The notes under the pieces are model-generated. The model saw only the letters and a list, made by a program, of their open reading frames with translations. It was not told where the DNA came from and ran no database searches. A stretch of DNA of 56,208 nucleotides, from contig JBGTSP010000003.1 of NCBI GenBank assembly GCA_041940205.1, positions 1 to 56,208 on the forward strand. The letters are read 5' to 3'. The position numbers were made by a program, and so were the translations under genes. Each line of letters starts with the position of its first letter. Within the stretch, counting starts at the first letter, position 1. The DNA comes from Alphaproteobacteria bacterium (GTDB lineage: Bacteria; Pseudomonadota; Alphaproteobacteria; GCA-2731375). Shown here one piece after another: positions 1-56,208 of the stretch.

Positions 1-1193
1 GTCGACTTGCCGGCGCCGGAGGGGCCGATCAGGGCGACGGTTTCGCCCTTGCGGATCTCCAGATCGAGCGACGCGAACACTTCGGCGCCGTTGGCGTGCC
101 GGAAGCCCACCTTGTCGAAACGGATGCTCTCGGCGAGACCCGGGAACGGCGCCCCGTCGTCCAGCGCCTCCAGGTCGGCCCGGCTTTTCAGGCGTTCGCG
201 GACCAGGCCGAGGGAGGGCATGGTGGAGATGATCTTGGTGCGCAGGCTGACGAGATAGGTGATGTAGGTGATCAGCCGCTGGGCGACGAGTGCGAAGAAA
301 CCCAGGATCGGAATGATCTCGGCCGGGCTCATCTCGATATAGAGCGCGGTGACGAGCAAGGTGGTCGAGACCACGGCGAGAACGAACAGTTCGGTGAGGT
401 GGTAGGGCAGCTCGGCGAACATGATGAACAGGGTCTCGGCCCTGGTGTAGTGCCGCAGGTCCTCGGCCACGCCGGCAAGCCGGTGTTCGCTCAGGTCGAA
501 GATCTTGACCTGCCGGACGGTCGCGATGGACTCCGCGACATTGTCCGAGATCGACTGCGACAGCGAAAGCCGCAGTTCGCCGAACCGGCCGGCATAGGCG
601 TCCGTCAGCCGGCGGATCAGGAAGACCACCGCGGCGCCGGCGACAAGCACGAACACCGTCGCCTGGAAATGGGTGAACAGCAGCAGCACGGTGAGCGCGC
701 TGGCGATCATCGCCCGGTTCGCGAAATCGAGAATCTGCGTGATCGCCCGGGCCGCGACGTTGGTCTCCTGCAATACGTTCTGCATCACCACGCCCTGGGC
801 CTCGTCGGTGGTGCGGGCGTATTTCTGGTCGAGGAAGCGGCGCAGCAGCAGCACCGTCCAGCGCTGCCGCAGACGCAGGGCGAAATGGTAGGACATGCCG
901 CGGGCCGAGACCTGCAGCGCGGTCTTCAGGGCGAAGGCGCAGAGCAGCAGGATCAGGATCGTCGACAGCGCCAGCCCCGCGGTGATGTCGCCGATCAGCG
1001 GCAGCGGCGGGGTCGTTTGCTCCGGATCGATCAGGGCTGTAAGCAGGGGCAGAACCATCGCCAGCCCGAAGGTCTCGGCGACCGCGGAACACAGCATGAC
1101 GACCAGTACCAGCAGACCACGCCGGCGATGCCCTTCCAGCATGCGCCACAGGGCGCCGAGGCGATCGGTCATCCCGGTGGAGGAGTGCGCCAT
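1..1193 (-). CDS. ABC transporter permease/ATP-binding protein (MsbA/PglK-like glycan exporter), runs off the window edge
   Basis: Absent from the ORF track. Manual minus-strand translation from ATG 1193 gives MAHSSTGMTDRLGALWRMLEGHRRRGLLVLVVMLCSAVAETFGLAMVLPLL, several TM segments, then FDKVGFRH...LEIRKGETVALIGPSGAGKST (Walker A) at the edge. Confidence 0.85.
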   Translation of the reverse strand, partial: MAHSSTGMTDRLGALWRMLEGHRRRGLLVLVVMLCSAVAETFGLAMVLPLLTALIDPEQTTPPLPLIGDITAGLALSTILILLLCAFALKTALQVSARGMSYHFALRLRQRWTVLLLRRFLDQKYARTTDEAQGVVMQNVLQETNVAARAITQILDFANRAMIASALTVLLLFTHFQATVFVLVAGAAVVFLIRRLTDAYAGRFGELRLSLSQSISDNVAESIATVRQVKIFDLSEHRLAGVAEDLRHYTRAETLFIMFAELPYHLTELFVLAVVSTTLLVTALYIEMSPAEIIPILGFFALVAQRLITYITYLVSLRTKIISTMPSLGLVRERLKSRADLEALDDGAPFPGLAESIRFDKVGFRHANGAEVFASLDLEIRKGETVALIGPSGAGKS

Positions 1194-1229: not shown

Positions 1230-1904
1230 ATGAGGGCGTGGCGCGATCCGTCCTGGTACGTCTCCCGCGTCCTGATTGTCGGCCGCCTGATCGTGCAGGC
1301 GTTCGCCGACCTGTACGGCCGGGCACGGCTGTCGCGCGTCGGCGCCATGCGTCTGTTCGACGGTCGGCCCGCCGCCGCCAAGCCGCCCGTGCCCGCCGAC
1401 CTGTGGTTCATGTACGCGACGATACGCGCCCGCCGCCCCAGGGTCGTGCTGGAATTCGGCAGCGGCTGTTCCACCTACATCTATGCCCAGGCGCTGGCGG
1501 ACAATGCCGCCGAAGGCCATCCGGGCTACCTCTATTCCCTCGACGCCGATCCCCACTGGGGTCAGGTGACCATCGATGCGATGCCCGAGCACCTGCGCGC
1601 GCATTGCGAGGTGCGGATCTGCGAGGCCGTCGCCAGCGAGCACGAAGGCACGCCGGTCTGGCGCTATGCCGACATTCCCGACGTCGTCCCCGATTTCATC
1701 TATCTGGACGGCCCGGCCCTGGACAGGGTGCGGCGCGCCTCGGTCGACGTGCTCGATCTCGAACCCCGGCTGGCGCCGGGCTGCACCGTTCTCGTCGACG
1801 GCCGGATGTTCAACTGCGCCTATCTGGAAAAGCATTTCACGCGATCCTGGTCACGCCGGCGCGATATCGTCCTGCGCAACACGGTTTACGAACTCGCCGA
1901 CTGA
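1230..1904 (+). CDS. Class I SAM-dependent methyltransferase (Methyltransf_24-like)
   Basis: 3' part of ORF 96..1904. Motifs VVLEFGSGCST, YSLDAD, PDFIYLDGP and VLVDG. ATG at 1230. Confidence 0.75.
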   Translation: MRAWRDPSWYVSRVLIVGRLIVQAFADLYGRARLSRVGAMRLFDGRPAAAKPPVPADLWFMYATIRARRPRVVLEFGSGCSTYIYAQALADNAAEGHPGYLYSLDADPHWGQVTIDAMPEHLRAHCEVRICEAVASEHEGTPVWRYADIPDVVPDFIYLDGPALDRVRRASVDVLDLEPRLAPGCTVLVDGRMFNCAYLEKHFTRSWSRRRDIVLRNTVYELAD

Positions 1905-2611
1905 GCGGCGCGGTCGAGCAGCCACTCGGCCAGCTCCAGCTCGAACGGCTCGTCGATATTGACCAGAGGCCGCTCGATCACCAGCGCCGCGCAGTCCTCT
2001 TCGATGATGTGGCCGTCGTCCACCAGGGTGGCGCGCCGGAGCGCGTAGCAGACGCCGTTGCGGTGATAATAATCCGGAATGCTCTGGCGCAGCGCGTGCC
2101 GCGCGCCCGTCGCCAGGTAGAATCCGATGCGCCCGTCGCCATCGCGGGTCAGGGTCTTGTGCGGCGTGAAATGCGCCGGTGTTGGCGAGACCGTGGCGGC
2201 CGCCCGGGCGCCGCTGTCGAGCAGCAGGTCGACGGTGGCCGTCACATCTTCCGGACGGCGCAGCGGACTGGTCGGTTCCAGCAGCACCGAAAGATCGAAG
2301 CGCCGGCCGTAATGCGCCTCGGCGGCCAGCCAGGCATGCCGCCACATCTCCGCCGAACCCGCGCGGTCGCCGGCCAGCTCGTCGGGACGCAGGAAGGGAA
2401 AATCGAGGCCGGCGTCACGGGCCGCCTCGCCGATCTCCCGATCGTCGGTGGAGATCAGCGCGGCGTCGAGCCAGGGCAGCGCGGCGGCGACGTCGCCGGC
2501 CCGGGCGACAAGGCTGCGGCCGCCGACAGTGCACAGATTCTTCCGCGGGATCGACTTCGAGCCGCCCCGCGCCGGCACCACGGCCAGCACCGTGTGGTCG
2601 CGATAGGCCAT
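1886..2611 (-). CDS. neuA: Acylneuraminate cytidylyltransferase (CMP-nonulosonate synthetase)
   Basis: PARGGSKSIPRKN, STDD, LEPTSPLR, NG..Y and NIDEPFE motifs. Confidence 0.92.
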   Translation of the reverse strand: MAYRDHTVLAVVPARGGSKSIPRKNLCTVGGRSLVARAGDVAAALPWLDAALISTDDREIGEAARDAGLDFPFLRPDELAGDRAGSAEMWRHAWLAAEAHYGRRFDLSVLLEPTSPLRRPEDVTATVDLLLDSGARAAATVSPTPAHFTPHKTLTRDGDGRIGFYLATGARHALRQSIPDYYHRNGVCYALRRATLVDDGHIIEEDCAALVIERPLVNIDEPFELELAEWLLDRAAQSASS

Positions 2612-3607
2612 TCAGCGAAGTTCCACCTCGCATCCGCCGGCACTGCTTTGGCGCGCCGCCTCGATCATCCGCATCACCTGCAGGCCCTCCTCGAGACTGC
2701 AGGCGGGCGGCCGCTCCGGCCTTTCCAGCAGGGCCAGGAAATCGCGCGCGACGGCCACGAACATGTCGTTGCGCGCGCAGTCGAAGCCGATCTCCTGCCA
2801 GGTTCCCTCGGCGTCCCCGGCGATGGCGATGCGGTTGGGATTTTCCGTCCACAGCAGCGTGCCGGTCTCCCCGACGAAACGGATTTCCTTGCGGTGCGGC
2901 CGGCCGTAGAGATCGAGATGCAGCTGCACCCGGCGTCCGTCCTCGAAACACGCGAGCAGGTCGACATTGTCGTCGGCGCTGATCGGTAGGGCGCTGATCT
3001 TCTCGACCCGGCCGCTGATCGTGCGCGGCATGCCGAGCAGCCAGAGCATCTGGTCGAGCCAGTGGCTTTCGTCCAGCAGGGCGCCGCCGCCAAGCTCGGC
3101 ATGGGCCATGAAGAAGTCCTCGAGCGGCTCCCAGGGATGCCAGTCCTCGAGATGGGCCGACATCACGAAACTGGCGGAGAGCACCCGGCCGATCCGTCCG
3201 GCCGCCAGTTCCGCGCGCACCCGTTGCAACGGCGGCCACCAGCGCCACGTGTAGCCCAGCAATACCGGCCGCTGGCATCGCTCAGCGCCCCGGGCCAGTC
3301 GGCGGGCGCTTTCCAGGTCCATCGCCACCGGCTTCTCGAGCAGCAGCGGCAGGCCCGCCTCGAGACAGGCAAGGCCCTGTTCGACATGGAAGCGGGTGGG
3401 CGAACAGATCGCCGCGCCGTCCCAGCCGCCGGCGTCCAGCGCCTCCGGCAGGCCGGCGAACACCGGCGAGGCGAAGCGTTCGGCGAAGGCCGCGCGCCGG
3501 TCCTCCCGCGGGTCCACGGCACCGGTTTGCGCCCCCAGTTCCTTCAGGTTGTCGGCGTGGCGGGCGCCGACGCTGCCGGCGCCGACGATCAGGATCCTCG
3601 GGCTCAT
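2612..3607 (-). CDS. Gfo/Idh/MocA family NAD(P)-dependent oxidoreductase
   Basis: C-terminal part of ORF 2612..5206. IVGAGSVGARH, LLEKPVA and GGGALLDESH motifs. ATG 3607 overlaps the upstream stop. Confidence 0.9.
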   Translation of the reverse strand: MSPRILIVGAGSVGARHADNLKELGAQTGAVDPREDRRAAFAERFASPVFAGLPEALDAGGWDGAAICSPTRFHVEQGLACLEAGLPLLLEKPVAMDLESARRLARGAERCQRPVLLGYTWRWWPPLQRVRAELAAGRIGRVLSASFVMSAHLEDWHPWEPLEDFFMAHAELGGGALLDESHWLDQMLWLLGMPRTISGRVEKISALPISADDNVDLLACFEDGRRVQLHLDLYGRPHRKEIRFVGETGTLLWTENPNRIAIAGDAEGTWQEIGFDCARNDMFVAVARDFLALLERPERPPACSLEEGLQVMRMIEAARQSSAGGCEVELR

Positions 3608-5124
3608 CTGAGGTCGCGCACCATGTCCTGGTAGGCCTGCGGATCGCAGTCGGCCTGCACGAACAGCGGGCCGCGCTGGCCCAGCGCGGCGGCAAGCCCG
3701 TCGGTATCGTCGACCCGCGCAGTGGCGAAGCCCATGGCGTCGAACAGCGCCCTCCACGGCCGGTCCGGGGTCAGCAGCGGCTGCTGCGTCAGACCGGTGG
3801 CGATCGCCCGCGTGCGCACCGAGCCGTAGCCGCCGTCCGAAAACAGCACGATGACGAGCGGCAGGTCGAGACGGGCGGCGAGCTGCGCCTCGGCCAGGTA
3901 GGGCCCGAGGCCGCCGTCGCCGACCGCCAGCACGGTGGGCACCGCGGGATCGGCCAGCGCCGCGGCCAGCGCCTGCGGCAGGCCCATGCCCATGAACCGG
4001 CCCGAGCCCGAGCTCAGGCAGTGTTCGGCCCGGCGCGCGCGCCAGACATGCTCGCCGATGGTGCAGAAATAGCCGGTGTCGATGACCAGCCTGACATCCG
4101 GCCCCAGGATCTCGTCGATCCGGCGGAAGGCATGCGCCGGCAGGAAGCCGGGGGCGAACAGCCGGTCGCGCATCTTCCCGCGGGTCCGTTCGACAAGGTC
4201 CAGACCCCAGTCGCGCGCCTCGAGCAGCTCGAACACGCCCTCGGGTCCGACCGTGTCGGCGAACCCGAAACCCTCGTGGCCCGCGGCCTCGATGGAATCG
4301 ACGTTGATCGCGGGGCAGCCGAACGGGGCGGCGCGCAGCACCTCGCCGGCGCGCAGTCCGAGACCGACCACCAGATCGGCGGCCGCCAGGATCGTGCCCT
4401 CGGGCGCCAGTTCGAGGCCGACGCCGGTATAGACACCGGCGGCCTGCGGCAGGGTCTCGTCGACGACGCCCTTGGCGGTCGCGGTGGAAAAGACGGGAAC
4501 GCGCAGCGCGTTCAGCCGCGCCGACCAGCCCTCGCGCAGGGCCAGGCTGCCGGCGATGACCACGGGCTGGCGGGCGTTCTCCAGGTTCGTGGCGATCTTG
4601 CGGTTGGGCACCGCGCGCCAGGCCGCCGGCGGCTCGCGGCGGTCGTTGTCGCCGATCAGTTCCAGGACCACGGGACCGGGCTCCTCGCAGCGCGCCCAGT
4701 CCGCCATCCGCCGGTAGTCCGGTCCGGCGCTGCCCAGGGCGCGCCGGCCCTTGGCGACGGCGGCGGTGAAACCGCCGTGATCGAGCCGCTTGTGCGCCCG
4801 CGCCGCCGGCTGCCCGGGACCATAGGCCTCGACCGCCGCGATCACCGGCAGGGCTTCCAGGCGGCAGGCCGCGAGCCCGGCGGCGAGATTGGCGAAACCC
4901 GGGCCCTTGATGGCGACCGCCAGGCCCGGCGGGTCGCCCAGCCGGCCCAGCGTGCCGGCCATGATCGCCGCCGCACCCTCGTGCTGGGTGGTCACGAAGG
5001 TTGTGCCATGGCCTTCCAGGGCGTCGATCAGCTCGAGGCTCTGGCCGCTGCCGGGCACGCCGAAGGCATGGCGCAGGCCGGCCGCGGCGGCGTCTTCGGC
5101 GAAGCGCCGGGTGGGATCGCTCAT
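3604..5124 (-). CDS. Thiamine pyrophosphate-binding enzyme (acetolactate synthase-like superfamily)
   Basis: FGVPGSG, HEGAAAIMAG (catalytic Glu), GPGFAN, MGMGLP and VGDGG...VLFSDGGYG. ATG 5124. Confidence 0.88.
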   Translation of the reverse strand: MSDPTRRFAEDAAAAGLRHAFGVPGSGQSLELIDALEGHGTTFVTTQHEGAAAIMAGTLGRLGDPPGLAVAIKGPGFANLAAGLAACRLEALPVIAAVEAYGPGQPAARAHKRLDHGGFTAAVAKGRRALGSAGPDYRRMADWARCEEPGPVVLELIGDNDRREPPAAWRAVPNRKIATNLENARQPVVIAGSLALREGWSARLNALRVPVFSTATAKGVVDETLPQAAGVYTGVGLELAPEGTILAAADLVVGLGLRAGEVLRAAPFGCPAINVDSIEAAGHEGFGFADTVGPEGVFELLEARDWGLDLVERTRGKMRDRLFAPGFLPAHAFRRIDEILGPDVRLVIDTGYFCTIGEHVWRARRAEHCLSSGSGRFMGMGLPQALAAALADPAVPTVLAVGDGGLGPYLAEAQLAARLDLPLVIVLFSDGGYGSVRTRAIATGLTQQPLLTPDRPWRALFDAMGFATARVDDTDGLAAALGQRGPLFVQADCDPQAYQDMVRDLR

Positions 5125-6089
5125 GGCGGTGTCTCTCCTGCCGGCGCCAGGTCCAGGTGGCGCGCGATCTTCTCCGCCGCGCGGCGGCAGACCACGCGCA
5201 CCGCATCCGGCGAGAATCCCCCGCAATGCGGCGTGATGATCAGGTTGTCGTGGCGGCGGGCATAGGCCAGCAGCGGATGGGTCGCGATCTCCGGTTCGCC
5301 GTCCAGGACATCGAGCCCGGCCGCGCCGATGCGACCGGATTCGAGGCCGGCGAGCAGGGCCGCCTCGTCGATCACCGCGCCGCGCGAGGTGTTGATGACG
5401 ATCGCGCCGGGTTTCGCGCGGGCCAGCAGATCCGCGCTCAGCAGGCCGCGCGTCTCGTCGGAGAGATGCACATGCACCGAGATCACGTCGGCCTGGGCGA
5501 CAAGGTCCTCGGGCGCGCAGCGCTCGATATTCGCGGGCCAGTCCGCGAGATGGGGGTCGTGGCCCAGCACCCGCATGCCGAAGGCGCGGGCGTAGCCGGC
5601 CATCCACTGGCCGATGCGGCCGCAGCCGAACAGGCCGAGGCAGCGTCCGTTGAGCATCAGGCCGGGGAAGTTCTCCCGCGTCCAGCCGCCGTCGCGGACA
5701 TGCGCCGCCGCCGCCGGCAGCCGCCGGGCGCAGGCCAGCACCAGGGCCCAGCTCAGCTCCGCGGCGGGCGTGATGTTGCGCAGCAGCTCGGGATCCTCGC
5801 GCAGGGTGTGCAGCGCGACCCCGGCCGCCTCGAGACCGTCGCGCGCGATGTGATCGGAACCCGTTGTCGCCGTCGAGATGACCTTGAGGCGCGGCGCGGC
5901 GCGCAGCATCGCGTGATCCAGCCGCACCTTCATCGAGGCATCCAGCAGGGCGTCGGCGCCGCCCAGCGCGGTGGCCAGCGCCGCCGGCTCGGCCTCGACA
6001 TGACGGCAGTCGGCGACCCCGCCCAGCAGCGCCTCGAGCGCCTCGAAACCCTCGGGCGCGCCGACATAGAGAATGACCGGCCCGGCCAT
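5121..6089 (-). CDS. D-isomer-specific 2-hydroxyacid dehydrogenase (SerA-like)
   Basis: GLFGCGRIG, INTSRGAVIDE, GLDVLDGEP and TPHCGG motifs. Confidence 0.9.
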   Translation of the reverse strand: MAGPVILYVGAPEGFEALEALLGGVADCRHVEAEPAALATALGGADALLDASMKVRLDHAMLRAAPRLKVISTATTGSDHIARDGLEAAGVALHTLREDPELLRNITPAAELSWALVLACARRLPAAAAHVRDGGWTRENFPGLMLNGRCLGLFGCGRIGQWMAGYARAFGMRVLGHDPHLADWPANIERCAPEDLVAQADVISVHVHLSDETRGLLSADLLARAKPGAIVINTSRGAVIDEAALLAGLESGRIGAAGLDVLDGEPEIATHPLLAYARRHDNLIITPHCGGFSPDAVRVVCRRAAEKIARHLDLAPAGETPP

Positions 6090-7261
6090 CAGTAATGCAG
6101 CCGTTTCTGGATGGTGAAGGTGGCCTCGGCCAGGTGCCCGGCGATCCGCTCGCCGGCCCGGCCGTCGCCGAACATCATCGAGCGGGGGTAGCGCCCGTGC
6201 GCGATCTGTTCGCGGATCGTCCGCTCGATCGCGACGGCATCATGGCCGGCATGGCGCACGTTGGGACCGTGCTCGCGACCCTGCTGGCGGGTGCCGATAT
6301 TGACCACGGGCGTGCCCATCCAGGCGCCCTCGCGCAAGCCGGAGGAGGAATTGCCGACGACGCAGGCCGCATTGTTGATCAGCCGCGCATAATCCAGCGG
6401 TGGGAAGTTGCGGTAGAAGTGCAGCCGGCCGTCGCCCTGCTGCTCGCGATGCATGCGCAGCCCCTTGGAGACGTCGTCCGAGCCCGCGTCCACGTTCGGC
6501 CACAGCCAGGCGACCTGCATGTCGAGGGCGACCACCGCCTTCAGGGTCTCGCGGATCTGTTCGAACCCGCGGCCGTATTCGGTGGTGACCGGGTGCTGCA
6601 GGACCACGAGATAGGGCGCGTGCGGATCGATCTCGGCGCCGACCCCGAGATTGGCCGTGAACAGGTCGTCCGGCAGGCCGAGATCGGCATCGGCGATCAG
6701 GTCGATCGAGGGGCAGCCGGTCATGTGCACGCTGGCCGGGTCCTCGCCCATCTTGCGCAGGATTTCCGCCGCGCCCTCGGTGGCGGGGAAATGGATGTGC
6801 GCCAGCTTGGTGATGGCGTGCCGCACGCTCTCGTCGATCGAACCGGTGACCTCGCCGCCCTGGGTGTGGGCCAGCGGGATGTTCATGTAGCTCGCCGCCA
6901 CCGCCGTCGCCATGGTCTCGAAACGATCGGCCACGGTCAGCACCACGTCGGGCTTCAGGTTCTCGAACTGCGAGGCGAGATCCATGATCGCCATGCCCGT
7001 CGACTTCGCCATGGTCGTCGGGTTCTCGCCCTCGACGATGGAATAGATGTTGGCGGACGGCTCGAAGCCGTCCTGGCGGATCAGGTCGACGACCTTGCCG
7101 AAGCGGTAGAGCAGCGCGGAGGCGCCGACGATCAGCTGCAGCTCGAGGTCGGGATGGTCCTTGACGGCCTGCAACACGGACTTGATGCGCCCGTAGTTCG
7201 CCCGGTTGTTGACGACGATGCAGACCCGACGCGGCCGGCCGGCCGGCGGTGCGGCGCTCAC
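6089..7261 (-). CDS. neuC: UDP-N-acetylglucosamine 2-epimerase (hydrolysing)
   Basis: RANYG, ADRFE, HTQGGEVTGSIDESVRHAITKLAH, QHPVTTE, GNSSSG and NIGTRQ. GTG 7261 overlaps the neuB stop. Confidence 0.92.
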   Translation of the reverse strand: MSAAPPAGRPRRVCIVVNNRANYGRIKSVLQAVKDHPDLELQLIVGASALLYRFGKVVDLIRQDGFEPSANIYSIVEGENPTTMAKSTGMAIMDLASQFENLKPDVVLTVADRFETMATAVAASYMNIPLAHTQGGEVTGSIDESVRHAITKLAHIHFPATEGAAEILRKMGEDPASVHMTGCPSIDLIADADLGLPDDLFTANLGVGAEIDPHAPYLVVLQHPVTTEYGRGFEQIRETLKAVVALDMQVAWLWPNVDAGSDDVSKGLRMHREQQGDGRLHFYRNFPPLDYARLINNAACVVGNSSSGLREGAWMGTPVVNIGTRQQGREHGPNVRHAGHDAVAIERTIREQIAHGRYPRSMMFGDGRAGERIAGHLAEATFTIQKRLHY

Positions 7262-8304
7262 AGCAGGTCCTCCTCGCGCAGCAGCCGGTCGGCGGCGACG
7301 TCGCGCGCCAGGGTGCGGCCGATGAACTCCTCGCGCCGCCCGGCGGCGATGCCGGTTCCCGGCTTCTTGGCCGTCAGCATGTCCGCGGTCAGCACGGTGC
7401 CCCGGGCGAGATCGCGGCTCGGCGCCAGGCTCTTGGTGAACAGGCCGCGCATCGTCTCCAGTTCGTCGGCCAGCGCATCCTTGTCGACCGGGTGGCGGCG
7501 CATCACCGCGTGCGCGTCGCGGGCATCGGCCAGCAGGCGAAATTCGTCGAAGGTCAGCGATGCCGGCGTGTCGGGTCCGAACATCCGCTTGTCGAAGGTG
7601 ACATGCGCCTCGATCATGTCCGCACCCTGCATCAGCGCCGCGACCGCCGGCCAGGGACTGCCCGAATGATCGGACAGGCCGACCGGACAGTCGTGCGCAT
7701 CGCGCAGCGCGGGCAGCACATTCAGGCCGACCTGCTCCAGCGGGGTGGGATATTTCGAGGTGCACTGGAACAGCGCCACCGGCGCGCCGAGCGCGCGGAT
7801 GCGCGCCACGCCGTCGGCGATTTCGCTGTACCGGCTCATGCCCGTCGACAGCAGCACCGGCTTGCCGGTGGCGGTCATCGCGGCCAGCAGGTCCTCGGAG
7901 CGGAATTCCCCGGAACCGACCTTCCAGGCCGGCACGTCCAGCCGCTCCAGCAGTTCGACGGCGGCGACGGAAAAGGCGGAAGACAGGAAATCCACGCCCT
8001 TCTCGCGGGCATGGGCGGCGAGCCCGGCCCAGTGCTCGGGCGTGAACTGCATGCGCTGCCAGTATTCGTAGCGGGTCGAATCCTGTCGCGAGAAGCGAAC
8101 CCGGAACTCCTCGTCGCGGGTGCTTTCGGCGGCGGCGATGTGGGTCTGGAACTTGATCGCGTCGGCCCCGGCCTCCGCGGCGGCGTCGATGAAGGCGTGC
8201 GCGGTGCCCAGCGAACCGTCATGCGCCTGGCCGACCTCGGCGATCAGATAGCAGGGCGCGCCGCCGCCAAGCGTGCGGTCCGCCAGGGGAATCGTGGCGC
8301 TCAT
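7258..8304 (-). CDS. neuB: N-acetylneuraminate synthase family protein with C-terminal SAF domain
   Basis: IAEVGQAHDG, ADAIKFQTH, KVGSGE, LSTGMS, CTSKYP, GLSDHS and KKPGTGI. ATG 8304. Confidence 0.93.
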   Translation of the reverse strand: MSATIPLADRTLGGGAPCYLIAEVGQAHDGSLGTAHAFIDAAAEAGADAIKFQTHIAAAESTRDEEFRVRFSRQDSTRYEYWQRMQFTPEHWAGLAAHAREKGVDFLSSAFSVAAVELLERLDVPAWKVGSGEFRSEDLLAAMTATGKPVLLSTGMSRYSEIADGVARIRALGAPVALFQCTSKYPTPLEQVGLNVLPALRDAHDCPVGLSDHSGSPWPAVAALMQGADMIEAHVTFDKRMFGPDTPASLTFDEFRLLADARDAHAVMRRHPVDKDALADELETMRGLFTKSLAPSRDLARGTVLTADMLTAKKPGTGIAAGRREEFIGRTLARDVAADRLLREEDLL

Positions 8305-9704
8305 GCCGCCGGCCCTTCCGGTCCGCCGCTCTCGCCCAGGTCCCAGAAAATGCCGGTCATGATCTGCAGGCCTTCGCGGGCGATCGGCGCCAGCAGGTGC
8401 TCGTTGGGGGCGTGCTGCGAACAGGCGGCGTAGGAATGCGGCACCCAGACCGTCGGCACGCCGATGATCTCGGCGAACACGTCGTTGGGCAGCGAGCCGC
8501 CGAGGTTGGGCACGATCATCGGCGGCCGCCCGAGGGTCCGTTCGATTGCCGCGCGGGTCCACTGAACCCAGGGATGGTCGGGCAGCAGCCGGGTTGCCCG
8601 CATCAGCACGTCCGCTTCATCCCGCGCCACCGCGACCTCCGGGAACCCGTGGCCTTCGAGATGGCTGCGGATCGCCGGCAGGAACGTGGCGGGATCACGG
8701 TCGACGGTGAAGCGGATCTGGCACCAGGCGGTGGCCCGGGGCGGGATCGCGTTCACCACCTTCTCGGGATCGCCGGCCTTGAAGGCCAGCACTTCCAGCG
8801 TATTCCAGGCGAACACCCGTTCCTCGGGCGTCAGGCCGGGCTCGCCCCAGTCGGGCTCGATCGCCGGCGCGTCCGGGCCGCCGTCCACCCGGCAGCCCGC
8901 CAGCGCCATGCGCACGCTGTTGGGGATTGCCTCGGGCTTCAGCTCGGGCACCAGGATCTGGCCTTTCGGGCCGACGAGGCAGGCGATGGCGTTGGCCAGA
9001 CGGGTGCCCGCGTTGGCGATCAGCCCGCCCCAGTTGCCCGAGTGGTGACCGCCTTCGCGCAGGTCGATCGAGAGTGTGAAGTTGAGGGCGCCGCGGGTGC
9101 CCATGAACAGGGTGGGCGCGTCGGGCGTCAGCCGTGGGCCGTCCGAGGCGATCAGCACGTCCGCGGCGAGTTCCTCGCGATGCGCCTCGCAGAAGGCGGC
9201 GAGGCCGGCGGAACCGGTTTCCTCGGAGGTCTCGATCAGGATCGTGGAATTGAAGCCCAGCCGGCCCCGGGTCGAAAGCACCATGTCGAGCGCGGCCAGG
9301 TTGATGCTGTGCTGGCCCTTGTTGTCGGCCGTGCCCCGGCCGTACCAGCGCTCGCCCTCGCGGTTCAGGGTCCAGGGGTCGCGGTCCTGCGCCCAGCGTC
9401 CCTCCTGTCCGCGCACGGTGTCGCCGTGGCCGTAGGTCAGGACCGTCGGCAATGCCGGATCCTCGATCCGCCGGCCGATCAGCAGCGGCCCCTGATCGGG
9501 CTCGGGATTGTCGTGGATGGCGACCGAATAGCCCCGGGCTTCGAGCCAGGGTCCGATCTCCTCCCCGAGGTAGCGCTGCAGCGCCGGCCGGAAGGCGCTC
9601 TCCTGGCTGGTCGAGGGAATGGCGATGCGCCGCGCCAGGTCCTCGAAATACCCGTCCTCGTCGAAATACCGGGCCGCGGCGGCAAGGGCGTCGCTTCGGC
9701 TCAT
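8301..9704 (-). CDS. M20 family metallopeptidase/amidohydrolase
   Basis: YGHGD, GRGTADNKG, EETGS, HSGNWGG and QHAPNE motifs. Confidence 0.9.
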   Translation of the reverse strand: MSRSDALAAAARYFDEDGYFEDLARRIAIPSTSQESAFRPALQRYLGEEIGPWLEARGYSVAIHDNPEPDQGPLLIGRRIEDPALPTVLTYGHGDTVRGQEGRWAQDRDPWTLNREGERWYGRGTADNKGQHSINLAALDMVLSTRGRLGFNSTILIETSEETGSAGLAAFCEAHREELAADVLIASDGPRLTPDAPTLFMGTRGALNFTLSIDLREGGHHSGNWGGLIANAGTRLANAIACLVGPKGQILVPELKPEAIPNSVRMALAGCRVDGGPDAPAIEPDWGEPGLTPEERVFAWNTLEVLAFKAGDPEKVVNAIPPRATAWCQIRFTVDRDPATFLPAIRSHLEGHGFPEVAVARDEADVLMRATRLLPDHPWVQWTRAAIERTLGRPPMIVPNLGGSLPNDVFAEIIGVPTVWVPHSYAACSQHAPNEHLLAPIAREGLQIMTGIFWDLGESGGPEGPAA

Positions 9705-9795: not shown

Positions 9796-10302
9796 TCAGT
9801 TGCGGGCCCGCTCGATCCTCTCGGCGGGAACAGTGGTCCGGACCTGCCGGCCCAGAAAATCGAGCAGCACGACCACCCTGTCGTTGTCGCTCATGCGTTC
9901 GAACAGTCCGATCTGGCGGGCCAGCGCGCCATGCTCGACGACGACGGCCTCGCCGGGTTGCAGCGGCGCTTCCGGCGCCAGGGCGATCAGCCCTCTCTCG
10001 TCCGTCCGACCCCGCAGTTCGGCGATCACCGCCTCGGGCACCCTTGTCGGGCGGCGTCCGAGGGCGACCAGACTGTCGACGCCGGGCGCGCTGGCAATCC
10101 GCGGCTTCTCGCCGGCTTCCAGATCGGCCTCGACGAACAGATAGCGGGGAAACAGCGGGCGTTCCACCATGTCGACCTTGCGCGCGTGCCGGCGCTTCTT
10201 CAGGTAGAGCGGCAGCAGCACCTCGAAACCGCGTTCCCACAGATTGCTGCGGGCCCACTTCTCCATCGACGCGTTGGTGTAGACGCAATACCAGGCTTTC
10301 AT
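9796..10302 (-). CDS. RfaH/NusG-paralog transcription antiterminator
   Basis: C-terminal part of ORF 9796..10989. WYCVYT, PLFPRYLFV (NGN domain) and KOW-like PGEAVVVEHG...RVVVLLDFLGRQV. Confidence 0.88.
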   Translation of the reverse strand: MKAWYCVYTNASMEKWARSNLWERGFEVLLPLYLKKRRHARKVDMVERPLFPRYLFVEADLEAGEKPRIASAPGVDSLVALGRRPTRVPEAVIAELRGRTDERGLIALAPEAPLQPGEAVVVEHGALARQIGLFERMSDNDRVVVLLDFLGRQVRTTVPAERIERARN

Positions 10303-10961
10303 GGTGCCGCATCTCCGTGTGCAGGGCGGACCGGGTCGGGCGAGACGCCGAGCAGCGGCGGGCAGAGAATCCGCGCCGGCGGGAAGTGCGGCCGCATGCG
10401 CGCGACCATGGTCTCGGGCGATTTCAGTTCGGTGATGAGGACGGCGTCCGCGCCGGTCAGCGCGGAGATCTCGCGAACCATCGGGACATGACGGAAGCGG
10501 TTGCTCTGGGCCTCGGGATCGATCACCCCGACGATCTCGATCTCGTACTGCAGGGCGCAGAGCAGGGCGACCTCGGCCAGTTCGCCGCTGCCGGCCAGCA
10601 CGACGCGACGGCAATTCTCGTCCGCGGCCTGCTCCAGCAGGGCATCCACCTGGTTGCGCGCACGACGGTAGAACCGGAAGGAGCGCGCGAGGTAACTCGC
10701 GGTCAGCCGGCTCTTCTCGCTGAAACCGCGCGGCGTGAGGTAATAGGCGTAGCGGTTGGCCGGCACCTTCTGGACCTTGATCAGGCCCTTGCGGATGCAG
10801 CGCTTGAGATAGGCGTTGGTCAGCCCCAGCGCGATGTTCAGGCCGGCGGCCATGGAGCGCTGCGAAATCGAGGCGTCCGCCTCGACGGCGCGCAGCACGC
10901 CCATGGTGATGCGGTCCTCCGCGTCGCTCGTCTCCTGAACCAGGGAGCCGTCGCTGGCCAT
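10299..10961 (-). CDS. EPS-locus-associated winged-helix (MarR-like) regulator with C-terminal Rossmann-like domain
   Basis: SQRSMAAGLNIALGLTNAYLKRCIRKGLIK, YAYYLTPRGFSEKSRLT and VVLAGSGELAE. Confidence 0.85.
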   Translation of the reverse strand: MASDGSLVQETSDAEDRITMGVLRAVEADASISQRSMAAGLNIALGLTNAYLKRCIRKGLIKVQKVPANRYAYYLTPRGFSEKSRLTASYLARSFRFYRRARNQVDALLEQAADENCRRVVLAGSGELAEVALLCALQYEIEIVGVIDPEAQSNRFRHVPMVREISALTGADAVLITELKSPETMVARMRPHFPPARILCPPLLGVSPDPVRPAHGDAAP

Positions 10962-12548: not shown

Positions 12549-13889
12549 TCAGCGGTTTTCCTGCAGGAAGCGCATGCGTTCCTCGAAACGGGCCAGCGCG
12601 CGATTGGTCTGGACCTGCCGGGCGGCCCGTTCGCGGTAGAGCTGCTGCAGCTGCTCGCGCCGTTCCCGGGTCCGGGTGATCCGCTGCTCGCGTTCGTTCG
12701 CCGCGATCTCCTGCTTCTCGGCCTCCCGCTTCAGCCGGTCGAAGCGCTTGCGCCAGGTCGAGGCGAGACGCTCGCCCAGCTTGACCTCGGTCTTCGACAT
12801 CTCGTTGGCGAGCGATTTCTGCGCCGCCTTGGCCGACGCCAGTTCCTGCCAGGCCGCGAGCGTGAGCCACTTGTAGGCAACCAGCTTGTTGCGCTTCACC
12901 CCCATGCCGCGGGCGTACATCACGCCGAGCTGGTACTGCGAATCCGGATGGCCCTTCTCGGCCGCCAGGTTGAAGAACTTGCGGGCGATCTCGTAGTCGC
13001 GCGTCGCCCCGTCATGGTTGGTCAGGTGCAGCGCCGCATACTCGTACTGCGCCTCGAAATAGCCGCCCTCGGCCGCCTTGCGCAGCCAGTCGCGCAGCTT
13101 CGTCTTGTCCTGCGATACCCCGGTGCCGGCGCGGTACAGGCCGGCGAGCCGGTGCATCGCGATCAGGTCGCCGCCCTTGGCCAGGCGCTCGTATTCCGCG
13201 GCGGCCAGCCGGAACCACTTGGCGGCCTGGGCCGGATCTTTCGGCACGCCCCAGCCTTCCTCGTAGATCTTGCCCAGGGTGAGGATCGAGGACAGCTTGC
13301 CGCTCTCGGCGACATCCTGGTTGACCGGCGCGGCCTTGCCGAACCAGAAATTCGCCTTGTCGTTGTCGGGCGCGACGCCGATGCCGTTCTTGTAGGCGAT
13401 CCCGACCTCGAACATGGCGCGCGGCTGTTCCAGTTCGGCCGCCTTGAGATAGTTGGTGAAGGCCTTCTCGTTGTCGCGCTCGGTGCCGCGCCCGGCGGAC
13501 TGCATCGAGGCGATCATGAAATAGCCGTCGCGATGGGGTTCGATCTCGACCGTCCGGGTGTACCAGTAGAAGGCCTCGACATGGTTCTGGCGCACGCCGA
13601 TACCGCTGAAATAGGCCTCGCCGAGCCGGTAGGCGGCGATCGACTCGCCCTCCTCCGCGGCCTCCTTCAGCAGCGCGATGCCGCGCTCGACATCCTGTGC
13701 GATGCCGCGGCCGCGCAGCAGCATCTCGCCCAGCCGGGCCTTTGCGCCGGCATCGCCCTCGTCGATGCGCTGCTGCAGCTCCTCTTCGCTCGGCCCCGCC
13801 GCGCTTTCCTGCGCCGCCGCGGGTGCGCCGAGCAGCGAGGCCAGCAGGAGGGCGAGCAGGCAGAGACGACCGTGTGCCAGCATGGTCAT
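12549..13889 (-). CDS. Secreted Sel1-like repeat protein with C-terminal coiled coil
   Basis: Signal peptide (LCLLALLLASLLGAPAAAQ), about 8 repeats of A...LG..Y..G.GV..D...A..W...AA, and a charged helical tail. Confidence 0.88.
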   Translation of the reverse strand: MTMLAHGRLCLLALLLASLLGAPAAAQESAAGPSEEELQQRIDEGDAGAKARLGEMLLRGRGIAQDVERGIALLKEAAEEGESIAAYRLGEAYFSGIGVRQNHVEAFYWYTRTVEIEPHRDGYFMIASMQSAGRGTERDNEKAFTNYLKAAELEQPRAMFEVGIAYKNGIGVAPDNDKANFWFGKAAPVNQDVAESGKLSSILTLGKIYEEGWGVPKDPAQAAKWFRLAAAEYERLAKGGDLIAMHRLAGLYRAGTGVSQDKTKLRDWLRKAAEGGYFEAQYEYAALHLTNHDGATRDYEIARKFFNLAAEKGHPDSQYQLGVMYARGMGVKRNKLVAYKWLTLAAWQELASAKAAQKSLANEMSKTEVKLGERLASTWRKRFDRLKREAEKQEIAANEREQRITRTRERREQLQQLYRERAARQVQTNRALARFEERMRFLQENR

Positions 13890-13934
13890 GGTCTCTGAAA
13901 GATAGGCCGTCGGGGCGTCATCGCAAACCACCGC

Positions 13935-15359
13935 CTATTGCTTGAGGGCGTTGTCCAGGGTCGTGAAGATGCGGTCGGTCAGGAAGGCCATGATGGTCTT
14001 CTCGCCGGTCTTGAACTCCACGTCCGCCACCATGCCGGCAATGATCGGCTTGTCGTCCGGATTGTTGCCCAGGTGCGCCTTGTCGGTCTTGACCACGACC
14101 CGGTAGGTGACGGCGCCGGTTCTCTCGTCCACGTCGGCATCGTCGGCGAGGGACTCGATCACGCCGTTCAGCTCGCCATACTTGATGAAATCGTAGGCGC
14201 GGATCTTCACCTTGGCTTCCTGGCCCAGATACAGGTCGCCGATGTCGGACTCCGCGACCTTGGTCTCGATGTGCAGCTTGTCGCCGATGGGCACGATGTT
14301 CATCACCGGCTCTCCCGGCCGGACGGCCTGGCCGACATTGGCGATCGCCAGGCGCTGCACGCGTCCCTGCCGGCCGTCGAGGTCCGGCACCAGAATGTTC
14401 ATCGAATCGATCCGCTCCTCCAGGGCGTTGGCCTGGGAGGCGATGCTGTCGCGCTCGGCCCGCCGCGCGGTCAGGTCGAGCAGGCGGTTGGAACTGCCTT
14501 CGTTGATCACCGCCTCGAGCTGGTTCTCCGCCTCGTCGCGACGGGCCCGCGCCGCGCGCAGGTTGGCCTGGTTGGCCTCGATCTCGCCCTTCAGGTCGTT
14601 GACCTGGCGCTTGACCGAGAGAAAGCGCAGCTTCGGAAAATACTCCTTGTCGACCAGGGTCTGGATGGCGTCGAGCTGTTCCTGCAGGGTTTCCAGGCCG
14701 GAGGCCTGGTAGCGCAGGGTCGCCTGCAGGCCGACAACCTGGCTCTGCGCCTCCTCCAGCGATTTCTCCGCCACCCGCCGCTGCGCGGCAAGCGCATCGC
14801 GCCGGGCGTAGAACAGCTGCAGCTGGGTCTGCATGTGCTGCGGCGCGATGCCCGGCGGGAAGTCGATCGTATCCTGGCCGCTGACCTCGGCTTCCAGCCG
14901 GGCGACCTCGGCGGCCAGACTCTGGTACTGGCCGCGCAGGCCCTGCAGTTCCTTCTCCAGCTGCGCCGAATCCAGTTCCAGGATCAGATCGCCGGTCTCG
15001 ACCCGGCTGCCCTCGCGCACGTGCAGCTGCTCGACCCGCCCGCCTTCGGGATGATTGATCACCTTGACCCGGCCGACCGGACGGACCTGGCCCTCCGCCA
15101 GCACCGCCTGTTCGACATGCGCGAACGAGGCCCAGGCGACGAACAGCAGGAAGAAGAAACAGACGACGACGATCAGCAGGGTCGCGATCGGCGAATGCCG
15201 GCGCGCCACCACCGCCTGCGAGTCCGGCAGGAAGTCGACATAGCTGGTCTGCACCTTCGACAACATGCCGCCGCCATGGCCCTGCGGGGCCGGCAGGTTG
15301 CGGCCCGTCGGCCGGGCCGGCGGCGCCGGCGGCCCCCGGTCGTCCGCGCGCATGCTCAT
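13935..15359 (-). CDS. HlyD family type I secretion membrane-fusion protein (LapC-like)
   Basis: N-terminal TM, AEGQVRP...GGRVEQLHVREG, coiled coil, AYDFIKYGELNG and GMVADVEFKTGEKT. Confidence 0.92.
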   Translation of the reverse strand: MSMRADDRGPPAPPARPTGRNLPAPQGHGGGMLSKVQTSYVDFLPDSQAVVARRHSPIATLLIVVVCFFFLLFVAWASFAHVEQAVLAEGQVRPVGRVKVINHPEGGRVEQLHVREGSRVETGDLILELDSAQLEKELQGLRGQYQSLAAEVARLEAEVSGQDTIDFPPGIAPQHMQTQLQLFYARRDALAAQRRVAEKSLEEAQSQVVGLQATLRYQASGLETLQEQLDAIQTLVDKEYFPKLRFLSVKRQVNDLKGEIEANQANLRAARARRDEAENQLEAVINEGSSNRLLDLTARRAERDSIASQANALEERIDSMNILVPDLDGRQGRVQRLAIANVGQAVRPGEPVMNIVPIGDKLHIETKVAESDIGDLYLGQEAKVKIRAYDFIKYGELNGVIESLADDADVDERTGAVTYRVVVKTDKAHLGNNPDDKPIIAGMVADVEFKTGEKTIMAFLTDRIFTTLDNALKQ

Positions 15360-36897: not shown

Positions 36898-37929
36898 GTG
36901 ACTGTCCGCGAGCTGCCGCCCGAACCCTGGCTGCCGGGCGAGTCCCCCTTTCCGGTCCGCCGGGGCCTGTTCCTGGTCTGGAAGCCGGAGTGCCATCGCT
37001 CGCTGATGACGGCGCGCTGCTTCAATCTCGCGCTGTGCTGCATCTGGCCCTTCGACGACCGCAGCGCCGTGCACAAGCTGGCGCGCTACGGCGTCTCGAT
37101 GATCCAGAGCCTGCTGCTGCTGCTGCGCCGGCGCCCGGACTTCCTGGTCTGCCTGAACCAGCCGCCCTTCCTGGTCCTGCTGACGGCGCTGTACGGCCGG
37201 CTGGCGGGCGTGCCCTATGTCCTCGATTCCCATTCCGGCGCCTTCGGAAAGAGCCAGTGGGCCTGGTTCCTGCCGCTCTACCGCTGGTGCGCCCGGCATG
37301 CCCTGTTCAACATCAACCACAATCCGCTGGAACGCGACCGGGTGGCGGGCTGGGGCGCCGAAACCCGGCTGATCCCCGAGATCCCCGGCGAGATCGCGAT
37401 CGCCACGCCGCCGCCGCCGGTCGACACCCGGCAGATCGCCTATGTCTGCTCGTTCGCCCCGGACGAGCCGCTGGAGATGGTGTTCGAGGCCGCCCGGCGC
37501 TGTCCGGAGCTGACCTTCCGGGTGACCGGCAACCATCGCAAGGCGCCGGCCGCGCTGATCGAAAGCCGGCCCGGGAACGTGCAGTTCACCGGATTTCTCG
37601 AACGCACCGCCTACCTCGACCTGCTGCGCGGCTCGGCCGCGGTGCTGACGCTCTCGGACCGGCCCCACATCATGCAGATGGCGGCGGAAGAGGCGCTCTG
37701 CCTGGCGGTGCCGATCGTGACCAACCGCTCGCCGGTGCTGGAGAGCAGTTTCGCCCGCGGAGCCCGCTTCGTCGAACTCAATGCCGACGATCTCGTCCCG
37801 GCCCTCGAGGCGGTCTGCGACGACAACGCGTATTACCGCCGGGAGATCGCGGCCCAGCGAGAGATCCGCCGGGACCACCTGCGCGCCCTTCTTGACGAGA
37901 TTGCTTCCTTCTATAAGGCGACCCGATGA
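36898..37929 (+). CDS. Glycosyltransferase (GT-B fold)
   Basis: NQPP, DSHSGAF, SFAPDEP, FTGFL and EALCLAVPIVT. Confidence 0.8.
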   Translation: MTVRELPPEPWLPGESPFPVRRGLFLVWKPECHRSLMTARCFNLALCCIWPFDDRSAVHKLARYGVSMIQSLLLLLRRRPDFLVCLNQPPFLVLLTALYGRLAGVPYVLDSHSGAFGKSQWAWFLPLYRWCARHALFNINHNPLERDRVAGWGAETRLIPEIPGEIAIATPPPPVDTRQIAYVCSFAPDEPLEMVFEAARRCPELTFRVTGNHRKAPAALIESRPGNVQFTGFLERTAYLDLLRGSAAVLTLSDRPHIMQMAAEEALCLAVPIVTNRSPVLESSFARGARFVELNADDLVPALEAVCDDNAYYRREIAAQREIRRDHLRALLDEIASFYKATR

Positions 37930-38519
37930 ACGCGTTCGATCCGCTCTCCCTTTTCACGACCGTCCTCGACGAGCACGAGGCCGTCTGCCGCGCGGTCCGC
38001 GCGGAGCTGGCGCCGGGTTTCGCCGCGATGCACGAGGCCTGGGTACGCACCATCCGCGGCGGCGGCAAGATCCTGTTCTTCGGCAACGGCGGCAGCGCCG
38101 GCGACGCCCAGCACCTGGCCACGGAACTCGCGGTGCGCTACCGGGACGACCGGCCGGCCATCGCCGGCCTCGCCCTCACCACGGATACCTCGGCCCTGAC
38201 GGCGGCGGGCAACGACATGGGGTTCGAGCGGATCTTCGCCCGGCAGATCGAGGCGCTGGGCCGGCCCGGCGACCTGGCGCTGGGGATCACGACCTCCGGG
38301 CGCTCCGCCAATGTCATCGCCGCCCTCGAAACCGCGCGCGAGCGGGGCCTGGTTGCGGCGGCCCTTTCGGGCGGCGACGGCGGGGCCCTGCCGGGGCTTG
38401 CCGATCCATTGCTGATCGTGCCGTCGACGACGACGGCGCGGATCCAGGAGATGCACATCATGCTGGGGCAGATGCTCTGTCAGGCGCTCGAGACCGAGCT
38501 CGGGCTGGTGGCGCCGTGA
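37926..38519 (+). CDS. gmhA: Phosphoheptose (sedoheptulose-7-phosphate) isomerase
   Basis: GNGGSAGDAQH, TAAGND, TSGRSANV and RIQEMH. Confidence 0.93.
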   Translation: MNAFDPLSLFTTVLDEHEAVCRAVRAELAPGFAAMHEAWVRTIRGGGKILFFGNGGSAGDAQHLATELAVRYRDDRPAIAGLALTTDTSALTAAGNDMGFERIFARQIEALGRPGDLALGITTSGRSANVIAALETARERGLVAAALSGGDGGALPGLADPLLIVPSTTTARIQEMHIMLGQMLCQALETELGLVAP

Positions 38520-55989: not shown

Positions 55990-56208
55990 TCAGATCTTCC
56001 GGCCGGCCTGCTCCCAGTGGGCGTCGCGCAGCTTGCGCTTGAAGATCTTGCCGGAATCCTCGCGCGGCAGGGCGTCGTGGAACTCGACAAGGCGGGGCAC
56101 CTTGAAGCGGGCGAGGCGGGCCTGCAGAAACGCCCGGATCTCGTCCGCGTCCGCCGGCCCCTCGACCTGCACCGCCGCCGCCACCGCCTCGCCGAACTCG
56201 TCGTCGGG
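55990..56208 (-). CDS. Acyl-CoA synthetase/AMP-binding protein, C-terminal fragment (truncated by window)
   Basis: PDDEFGEAVAA...LARFKVPR...LPREDSGKIFKR. Confidence 0.85.
   Translation of the reverse strand, partial: PDDEFGEAVAAAVQVEGPADADEIRAFLQARLARFKVPRLVEFHDALPREDSGKIFKRKLRDAHWEQAGRKI

Follow-up and report, generated by a model that had tools for sequence, protein, structure and literature searches.

What does a sialic acid operon produce when three additional enzymes are inserted between its neuC and neuA genes? The question is raised by a contig of an alphaproteobacterial metagenome-assembled genome (MAG; contig JBGTSP010000003.1 of assembly GCA_041940205.1), whose whole analyzed stretch of 56,208 nucleotides is called the window throughout. 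Here, six co-directional minus-strand genes (positions 1886-8304, about 6.4 kb) follow each other in the order neuB-neuC-HADH-TPP-Gfo-neuA. HADH denotes a D-2-hydroxyacid dehydrogenase, TPP an acetolactate synthase (ALS)-like enzyme dependent on thiamine diphosphate (ThDP), and Gfo an oxidoreductase of the Gfo/Idh/MocA family. Nonulosonic acids (NulO) cap microbial surface glycans, and the original prediction for this DNA had proposed that the block makes an undescribed sugar of this class, with the three inserted genes acting as one functional trio. On balance, if not by much, we consider it probable that the six genes form a self-contained, horizontally mobile module making a cytidine monophosphate (CMP)-activated derivative of N-acetylneuraminic acid (Neu5Ac). 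Our best guess for the product is a carbon-skeleton-modified, CMP-activated sialic acid.

The window has a GC content of approximately 70%, and genes were located via third-position GC and open reading frame (ORF) structure. A third-position GC of 0.83-0.95 was observed in exactly the six frames of the block, supporting that they are coding. According to the ORF listing and the start codon analysis all six genes overlap or abut, and the Pfam assignments of all six proteins exceed the gathering score. The overlapping neu block described in the original prediction was borne out by these data, including its span, which runs exactly from the neuA stop to the neuB start (Table 1). It had further been claimed that the window contains no dehydratase or aminotransferase for legionaminic acid (Leg) or pseudaminic acid (Pse) and no NeuD-type acetyltransferase. 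This holds for the 46 predicted window proteins, among which none was detected by Pfam and profile scans; four short predicted ORFs (1169-1474, 48343-48618, 48661-48963, and 55990-56208) lay outside the protein scan.

Using the TPP enzyme as query against one genome per prokaryotic species, 64 loci were obtained. A full-length TPP orthologue (42-58% identity) was found in 57 of them; the other 7 contained only distant ThDP enzymes (23-38%). The proteins of the window were placed on the loci by tblastn, and presence was counted only where the flank sufficed to judge. On this basis, HADH was found directly upstream of TPP in 49/49 judgeable loci, Gfo downstream of TPP in 50/51 (the miss being L057) and neuA downstream in 46/49 (misses: L002, L047, and L057). 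Upstream of TPP, neuC was present in 29 and neuB in 28 of 44 judgeable loci. Loci without adjacent neuB/neuC came mostly from marine relatives belonging to the window's own family. Five genomes with such loci were tested, and each of them encodes NeuB elsewhere (53-76% identity), in two cases within a MarR-NusG-M20-neuB-neuC arrangement. Because these genomes keep NeuB at another site, the six genes are one conserved set, which is sometimes divided between two loci. A chance adjacency was ruled out by the locus counts, as the order is the same in dozens of unrelated genomes. Co-occurrence of the inserted enzymes with neu genes in other genomes had been set beforehand as the check on the original prediction, and the same counts bear it out.

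The hosts of the block comprise the alphaproteobacterial Rhodospirillaceae, Rhizobium sp., Bradyrhizobiaceae, Xanthobacteraceae, and Devosiaceae, as well as Desulfobacterota, Gemmatimonadaceae, Burkholderiales, a gammaproteobacterium, Nitrospira, Binatia, and a Methanoregula archaeon. Within the window's own family, 15 of 24 other genomes carry a TPP orthologue; none was found in the 16 genomes that represented 16 further families of this class. A tree was built from 44 NeuB sequences, and in it the 36 NeuB proteins associated with the block form one clade (support 98/96), separate from the NeuB2-type and PseI-type clades of the same genomes. Nitrospira groups with Burkholderiales in both the NeuB and the HADH tree; in the latter, Thermodesulfobacteriota and a deltaproteobacterial MAG cluster with Methanoregula. 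These host groupings indicate that the whole block has spread horizontally, and for the Methanoregula block the HADH grouping suggests a transfer between domains. In the Methanoregula MAG (L024:332-11269) a complete Pse set consisting of PseC, PseF, PseG/H, and PseI lies directly upstream of the six-gene block. With a complete Pse set already beside it, the block would therefore be a pathway distinct from Pse.

Which type of nonulosonate is made by the core enzymes was judged from scores against protein models and solved structures. NeuC reaches 363.4 bits with TIGR03568 (cut-off 235.9), and among solved structures the human GNE epimerase domain comes first (251 bits), followed at 170 bits by the LegG-type 2-epimerase of N,N'-diacetylbacillosamine. 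NeuB matches PF03102 with 216 bits and carries a SAF domain; among solved structures Neisseria meningitidis NeuB/SiaC ranks first (187 bits), ahead of SpsE (144) and PseI (141), and the score against the PseI model (214 bits) stays below the cut-off of 340. NeuA scores 40.7 bits with PF02348 (cut-off 22.6). Among solved structures it matches only CMP-Neu5Ac synthetases, although weakly (81 and 67 bits); NeuA proteins of the block family share 57-74% identity between phyla. A search for longer, fused relatives of NeuA gave 2 matches and no informative architecture. LegB, LegC, and LegH were found neither among the 46 window proteins scanned nor in the recurrent neighbor families of the 57 loci, and the 30 ORF families most widespread in these loci include neither an aminotransferase nor a dehydratase. 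DegT homologues occurred, among the loci examined, only in L024, as part of its separate complete Pse set, and in L057. The block thus differs from a Pse pathway in having a NeuC-type epimerase and no PseG, and from a Leg pathway in that the feeder enzymes were not found and NeuC ranks GNE over the LegG-type epimerase. Based on the solved-structure rankings and on the Leg/Pse feeders not found among recurrent neighbors, the core looks Neu-type, not Leg or Pse, and would start from UDP-N-acetylglucosamine (UDP-GlcNAc). The same NeuC, NeuB, and NeuA families constitute the known CMP-Neu5Ac pathway (SiaA/SiaC/SiaB of N. meningitidis, Escherichia coli K1). Unlike that pathway, the block contains three extra enzymes between neuC and neuA, its NeuB proteins form their own clade, and the loci carry an MsbA-like ABC exporter and unnamed proteins of the glycosyltransferase B (GT-B) fold.

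HADH was compared both within the source genome and with proteins of other organisms. HADH matches PF02826 with 173.6 bits and also PF00389, so both domains of the two-domain fold are present, with sequence motifs which we take to be the canonical Arg/Glu/His catalytic motifs of the family. Its scores with NCBIfam equivalogs are all ≤187 bits against cut-offs of at least 261, hence no specific enzyme name can be assigned. The source MAG (464 contigs, 78% complete) encodes three further NeuB-family genes beyond the block. On contig C31 the genes neuB2-neuC2-HADH2-neuA2 are found without TPP and without Gfo. Contig C19 carries an NDP-sugar dehydrogenase gene followed by neuA3-HADH3-neuB3, again without TPP and Gfo, and in addition a separate Pse set including PseB (TIGR03589, 499 bits). 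The genome therefore holds three paralogous NeuB/HADH/NeuA modules, located in the window, on C31 and on C19. The three HADH proteins are pairwise 36-42% identical and form a clade (support 95/96) apart from the seven other 2-hydroxyacid dehydrogenase paralogues of the genome, in a 24-sequence tree built from the 10 own-genome copies (≥70% coverage) together with 14 block orthologues, for which 15 of the 47 available loci were drawn on; owing to long branches the exact placement is uncertain. An exhaustive search with HADH1 yielded 54,820 relatives, and 11 long proteins among the best 150 of these were scanned for domains. In six of the 11, a CTP_transf_3 (NeuA-like) domain at the N-terminus is fused to a 2-hydroxyacid dehydrogenase at the C-terminus. 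The others are one NDP-sugar dehydrogenase-HADH fusion, one protein with a NeuA-like fragment, two tandem HADH proteins, and one canonical SerA. The cluster names of the fusion proteins, of HADH, and of TPP were generic only. The NeuA-HADH fusions and the paralogous modules show that HADH is generally and recurrently associated with the cytidylyltransferase step, throughout a wider family of NeuB/NeuA modules. The three inserted genes can consequently no longer be viewed as the single functional trio proposed originally, since HADH also occurs in two modules without TPP and Gfo and fused to NeuA-like domains. For the same reasons, reduction of a newly added C2 branch, as performed by YerF, is an unlikely primary role of HADH.

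Several side observations concern the two paralogous modules. On C31 (4546-8439 and 18242-21014) the second neu module is accompanied by two unnamed 460-aa families, sulfotransferase-like genes, methyltransferases, and an asparagine synthase. On C19 (4444-8913 and 15615-21900) the third module is found with methyltransferases, a radical-SAM/SPASM protein, and an ABC exporter, and neuB3 has no SAF domain. The Pse set adjoining the third module contains a PseI-like protein, PseB, and a Pse-associated methylase. The NDP-sugar dehydrogenase-HADH fusion and the C19 module led us to consider, as substrate of HADH, an alpha-hydroxy acid at the tail end of a uronic acid-derived NulO. This was not supported for the block, as an NDP-sugar dehydrogenase is located near the block in only 4/64 loci, and there at the edges.

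A coupling of cytidylyltransferase and oxidoreductase has a precedent in Acinetobacter baumannii. According to PMC12053666, EpaA (CTP_transf_3 plus reductase) and EpaB tailor Pse, in the case of 8-epi-pseudaminic acid; in both systems a cytidylyltransferase is physically coupled to an oxidoreductase, here by the NeuA-HADH adjacency and by the fusions in other organisms. EpaA carries an aldo-keto reductase and EpaB is a short-chain dehydrogenase/reductase, whereas the partners in the block are HADH and Gfo, plus a ThDP enzyme without counterpart in the Epa system. From this likeness and from the natural NeuA-HADH fusions one could derive redox tailoring only, in which HADH and Gfo would convert Neu5Ac into an epimer or keto form and TPP would be accessory, for instance by handling a 2-oxo acid co-substrate. 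We rate this explanation as very unlikely. TPP is the most faithful member of the block, in our counts always flanked by HADH and Gfo (Gfo in 50/51), and an accessory role fails to explain its strict linkage and its absence outside this context among the loci found.

TPP is a ThDP enzyme of the ALS superfamily with intact cofactor motifs. Across 29 orthologues there is no variation at E49, presumably the Glu activating the cofactor, or at G402-D403-G404, presumably the motif that binds ThDP, and a family-specific motif (Y352-H359, consensus YFCTIGEH) is likewise invariant, with G357 only nearly so. The best sequence matches found were the catabolic ALS AlsS (89 bits) and carboxyethylarginine synthase (CEAS, 81 bits). 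An AlphaFold (AF2) model was obtained (predicted local distance difference test (pLDDT) 89, predicted template modeling score (pTM) 0.92). Its fold is closest to FAD-independent catabolic ALS (template modeling (TM) score 0.84-0.85), followed by CEAS (0.78) and 2-hydroxyacyl-CoA synthase (0.73), at 19-23% identity. Judging by the model, TPP looks like a carboligase handling 2-oxo acids. Compared with AlsS and CEAS, TPP is shorter (506 aa), has the Y352-H359 motif as its own, and shares only 19-23% identity; its context is a sialic acid operon, theirs are acetoin or clavulanate genes. The middle domain is short, the Pfam M domain being matched over positions 3-93 of 137. Matches of TPP in the ESM Atlas were restricted to unnamed "thiamine pyrophosphate-binding protein" clusters, of which the top-ranking one has 674 members. 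Relatives of TPP in its own genome are only 27-28% identical, and relatives of Gfo were not found there at E < 1e-8. TPP and Gfo are an add-on pair specific to this module. Gfo carries readable EKP and D-x3-H motifs, the EKP and Asp/His motifs presumably having their usual meaning. Its solved relatives are distant (all ≤57 bits) and comprise sugar/glycoside 3-dehydrogenases, PmdC, and inositol dehydrogenases; the 3-ketoreductase KijD10 is also among its relatives. Gfo as a sialic acid oxidoreductase of the NanOx/YjhC type was rejected, as 6z3b and 6z3c, the structures we take for NanOx, score just 29 bits, much less than other family members.

The pair could act by branching of the YerE type, a narrowed version of the scheme in the original prediction. 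Gfo would oxidize a ring or side-chain hydroxyl of Neu5Ac or CMP-Neu5Ac, TPP would add a pyruvate-derived C2 unit, and HADH would reduce the branch or supply an unusual 2-oxo acid as donor. We regard this scheme as unlikely. HADH is present in TPP/Gfo-free modules and in NeuA fusions, so its main role is not tied to a branch; moreover, YerE is a flavoenzyme, and TPP is short in its middle domain with FAD-independent ALS as nearest folds. In favor of branching, the nearest relatives of Gfo include sugar/glycoside 3-dehydrogenases and KijD10, and in L057 HADH-TPP stands beside a 4,6-dehydratase-like gene, i.e., a type of enzyme making keto sugars. Branching of keto sugars by ThDP enzymes is also established, as described in PMC9306805 for YerE, which transfers a C2 unit from pyruvate onto a keto sugar. 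YerE/YerF and ErwE/ErwF share with the block an ALS-superfamily ThDP enzyme, NAD(P)-dependent oxidoreductases, and an aldol-type enzyme forming a 2-oxo acid within a surface glycan locus; their substrate, in contrast, is a CDP-4-keto-3,6-dideoxyhexose provided by dehydratases, whereas the block contains no dehydratase genes and its sugar is CMP-type (PMC9306805). With no dehydratase in the block, the keto acceptor would have to come from Gfo. YerE was set beside TPP by description only, and the analogy may serve as a mechanistic lead only.

Neu5Ac belongs to the class of gamma-hydroxy alpha-keto acids, and it might itself be the ThDP substrate. According to PMC9306805, ErwE-type ThDP enzymes use such acids, made by aldolases, as donors and accept those of C4-C8 length. 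By ErwE/MMAR_2332-like or ALS-like chemistry Neu5Ac would be decarboxylated and ligated to an acceptor, HADH and Gfo would readjust the oxidation state, and a 2-ulosonic acid of other length would result for activation by NeuA. We consider this improbable, even more so than the branching scheme. ALS-type enzymes, the closest fold, take 2-oxo acids as donor and acceptor, and the NeuA-HADH fusions would agree with a HADH that converts a 2-hydroxy to a 2-oxo acid just ahead of NeuA. A 2026 preprint moreover reports higher-carbon (C10) ulosonic acids, CMP-activated and lacking assigned genes, for Magnetospirillum gryphiswaldense (10.64898/2026.04.20.719630). The fragmentation tree given there shows the loss of two N-acetyl groups (10.64898/2026.04.20.719630). 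Such a loss fits Leg/Pse rather than Neu, and a link between these acids and the block is conceptual only. By paper chemistry, an extension at the head end would put the N-acetyl group where the ring oxygen must sit and would not allow the usual pyranose, and the base modules carry HADH without any ThDP enzyme.

The genes recurring around the block were also compared. Among the 57 loci, sulfotransferases and polysaccharide deacetylases were each found in 25, their genes often overlapping, as in L003 (11896-13769), where the two genes overlap directly behind the block. The pairing resembles the logic of N-deacetylase/N-sulfotransferase, and by analogy the sugar or polymer may be de-N-acetylated and sulfated. 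An ABC exporter homologue was present in 24/57 loci, Methyltransf_24 in 20/57, and a Methyltransf_23 gene between neuC and HADH in 15/57. Two unnamed families of about 455 aa occur in 15 and 13 of the 57 loci. Both have members on C31, and a copy resembling one of them (family B) is encoded on C19. The model of family B (pLDDT 90) has a GT-B fold and matches UDP-GlcNAc 2-epimerases, HepE, MshA, and TarL with a query-normalized TM-score of ≤0.49, making it a candidate transferase for the CMP-sugar. A KpsMT-type exporter or a known sialyltransferase family was not seen among the Pfam matches of the neighbors scanned. The many tailoring genes (methyltransferases, sulfotransferases, deacetylases) speak in favor of a further explanation, according to which plain CMP-Neu5Ac is the product and HADH, TPP, and Gfo make a separate small hydroxy acid or aldehyde component, used as substituent or aglycone of the same glycoconjugate. 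The HADH family does make acids of the glycerate, lactate, and glycolate type, and ThDP decarboxylases produce aldehydes. A conserved acyltransferase or ligase which could attach such a component was, however, not found among the recurrent neighbor families of the 57 loci, and the NeuA-HADH fusions place HADH on the NulO line. We give this explanation a low probability, comparable to redox tailoring.

Returning to the favored CMP-activated Neu5Ac derivative, a sequence of steps can be proposed. Based on family membership NeuC would hydrolyze and epimerize UDP-GlcNAc to N-acetylmannosamine (ManNAc), and NeuB would condense ManNAc with phosphoenolpyruvate to Neu5Ac. The free 2-keto acid would then be remodeled between the NeuB and NeuA steps; remodeling before activation is suggested by the gene order and by NeuA, the least canonical of the core enzymes and yet highly conserved in the block. 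Gfo most likely would turn a hydroxyl into a carbonyl, or else reduce the product, and the ALS-like TPP might make or break a C-C bond using a 2-oxo acid. Together, Gfo and TPP might yield a C-branched or chain-altered nonulosonate. HADH would act as general partner of the cytidylyltransferase step, and NeuA would convert the remodeled acid into the CMP-sugar. The GT-B-fold proteins, methyl- and sulfotransferases, deacetylase, and MsbA-like ABC exporter of these loci would use and export the sugar. From the conserved block, the Neu-type core, and the lack of a published description among those found, an undescribed nonulosonate is a reasonable inference. In this respect the original prediction stands as far as the conserved unit co-occurring with neu genes and the Neu-type core are concerned, and falls with regard to the single trio.

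We are aware that a number of points weigh against this proposal. All related loci come from MAGs, and some of them are fragmented or frameshifted (L050, L054, and L056). NeuB remains with 286.4 bits below the TIGR03569 cut-off of 399.65, and NeuA passes no equivalog cut-off (PseF model 103 bits versus 205.7), so their substrates are not secured. TPP is no closer to any known sugar-branching enzyme than to ALS. To our knowledge every characterized 2-hydroxyacid dehydrogenase acts at C2 of a 2-oxo or 2-hydroxy acid. The only such center of Neu5Ac is the anomeric center needed by NeuA, and a HADH reaction there would destroy it, so that no satisfying chemical model is at hand for HADH. The product could also be plain CMP-Neu5Ac. 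Finally, L057 (Binatia) has HADH-TPP without Gfo and neuA, beside a DegT aminotransferase gene and a 4,6-dehydratase-like gene. Behind the HADH-TPP orthologues (59 and 42% identity), this locus (L057:237-9692) continues with methyltransferases, a GT2 glycosyltransferase, the DegT aminotransferase, and a GDP-mannose-4,6-dehydratase-like gene. This single contig, truncated upstream, hints that the HADH-TPP pair can serve other keto(-deoxy) sugars.

A full-text literature search found no paper describing this gene combination, and the available parts of PMC7371886, PMC5378307, and PMC12247030 contained nothing on HADH or ThDP enzymes in NulO clusters. The block is real and conserved, and apparently an undescribed variant of the sialic acid pathway. 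A ThDP enzyme retained inside a sialic acid operon across phyla, including an archaeon, would suggest that sialic acids are diversified by another route as well. The NulO classes known to us (Neu, Leg, Pse, acinetaminic acid (Aci), Kdn, and their epimers) vary in their amination, deoxygenation, and stereochemistry rather than through a rebuilt skeleton. In the widest version, which we put forward as a tentative and rather doubtful possibility, the module makes a new sialic acid class with a skeleton rebuilt by thiamine-dependent C-C chemistry. The module would yield CMP-ulosonic acids that are C-branched or have an extended chain (C10/C11), and these would occur widely among environmental bacteria and also in at least one methanogen. 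The module would be part of a larger undescribed "NeuB + 2-hydroxyacid dehydrogenase + NeuA" family of surface glycan systems, in which every system has GT-B transferases, sulfo- and methyl-tailoring, and an ABC exporter of its own. If true, candidate genes would be available for the unexplained higher-carbon CMP-ulosonic acids detected by mass spectrometry. The recurrent NeuA-HADH coupling adds an extra enzyme to a pathway usually treated as consisting of three, and as the block is small and looks self-contained, heterologous expression could test the product directly.

The operon begins upstream of neuB, with genes for a MarR-type regulator, a NusG paralogue, and an M20 deacylase, all co-directional with the block (Table 1). 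The M20 gene is the first enzyme gene of the operon in this lineage and has an equal position in L003, L048, L089, and L090. The NusG-like gene is kept upstream of the block, together with the MarR-family regulator, in 10 loci.

Table 1. Genes of the six-gene block and its flanks, with positions in the window.
Feature	Position	Strand	Remarks
MsbA/PglK-like ABC exporter	3..1193	-	ABC_membrane and ABC_tran matches; cut by contig end
Methyltransf_24 S-adenosylmethionine (SAM) methyltransferase	1392..1904	+	PF13578; convergent with neuA, downstream of block
neuA-like CMP-ulosonate synthetase (cytidylyltransferase)	1886..2611	-	241 aa; abuts Gfo; CTP_transf_3 (PF02348)
Gfo/Idh/MocA NAD(P) oxidoreductase (Gfo)	2612..3607	-	331 aa; 4-base overlap with TPP; GFO_IDH_MocA(+C): PF01408, PF22725, PF02894
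ALS-like ThDP enzyme (TPP)	3604..5124	-	506 aa; 4-base overlap with HADH; TPP_enzyme_N/M/C
PGDH-like D-2-hydroxyacid dehydrogenase (HADH)	5121..6089	-	322 aa; 1-base overlap with neuC; 2-Hacid_dh(_C)
neuC-like hydrolyzing UDP-GlcNAc 2-epimerase	6089..7261	-	390 aa; GTG start; 4-base overlap with neuB; Epimerase_2
neuB-like nonulosonate synthase	7258..8304	-	348 aa; ATG start; Pfam NeuB and SAF
M20 metallopeptidase/deacylase	8301..9704	-	NF005478, 708 bits; overlaps neuB start by 4 bases
NusG-like antitermination paralogue	9796..10302	-	PF02357
MarR-family exopolysaccharide (EPS)-associated regulator	10299..10961	-	TIGR04176, 68 bits (below cut-off of 88); HTH_24 match

The ABC exporter at the left end of the window is truncated at the Walker A motif (position 3). 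The rest of such a nucleotide-binding domain is encoded on C31 (24545-25078), and because the domain resumes there, C31 probably continues the left end of the window. On C31 (24524-25716) a frame joins a fragment of a sodium:dicarboxylate symporter to the ABC nucleotide-binding domain, and the final ~200 bases of the contig are AT-rich; this end is probably an assembly chimera. The remaining window consists of a Wza/Wzc/Wzy-type exopolysaccharide locus plus other genes. A type I secretion set is encoded on the minus strand at 12549-18262, composed of a 968-aa C39-peptidase ABC transporter, an HlyD-family adaptor, and a Sel1-repeat protein. Within the exopolysaccharide locus (37926-43355), a GmhA-like SIS protein, an HldE-like kinase/nucleotidyltransferase, a heparinase II/III-like protein, and an enzyme of the UDP-glucose/GDP-mannose dehydrogenase family were found.

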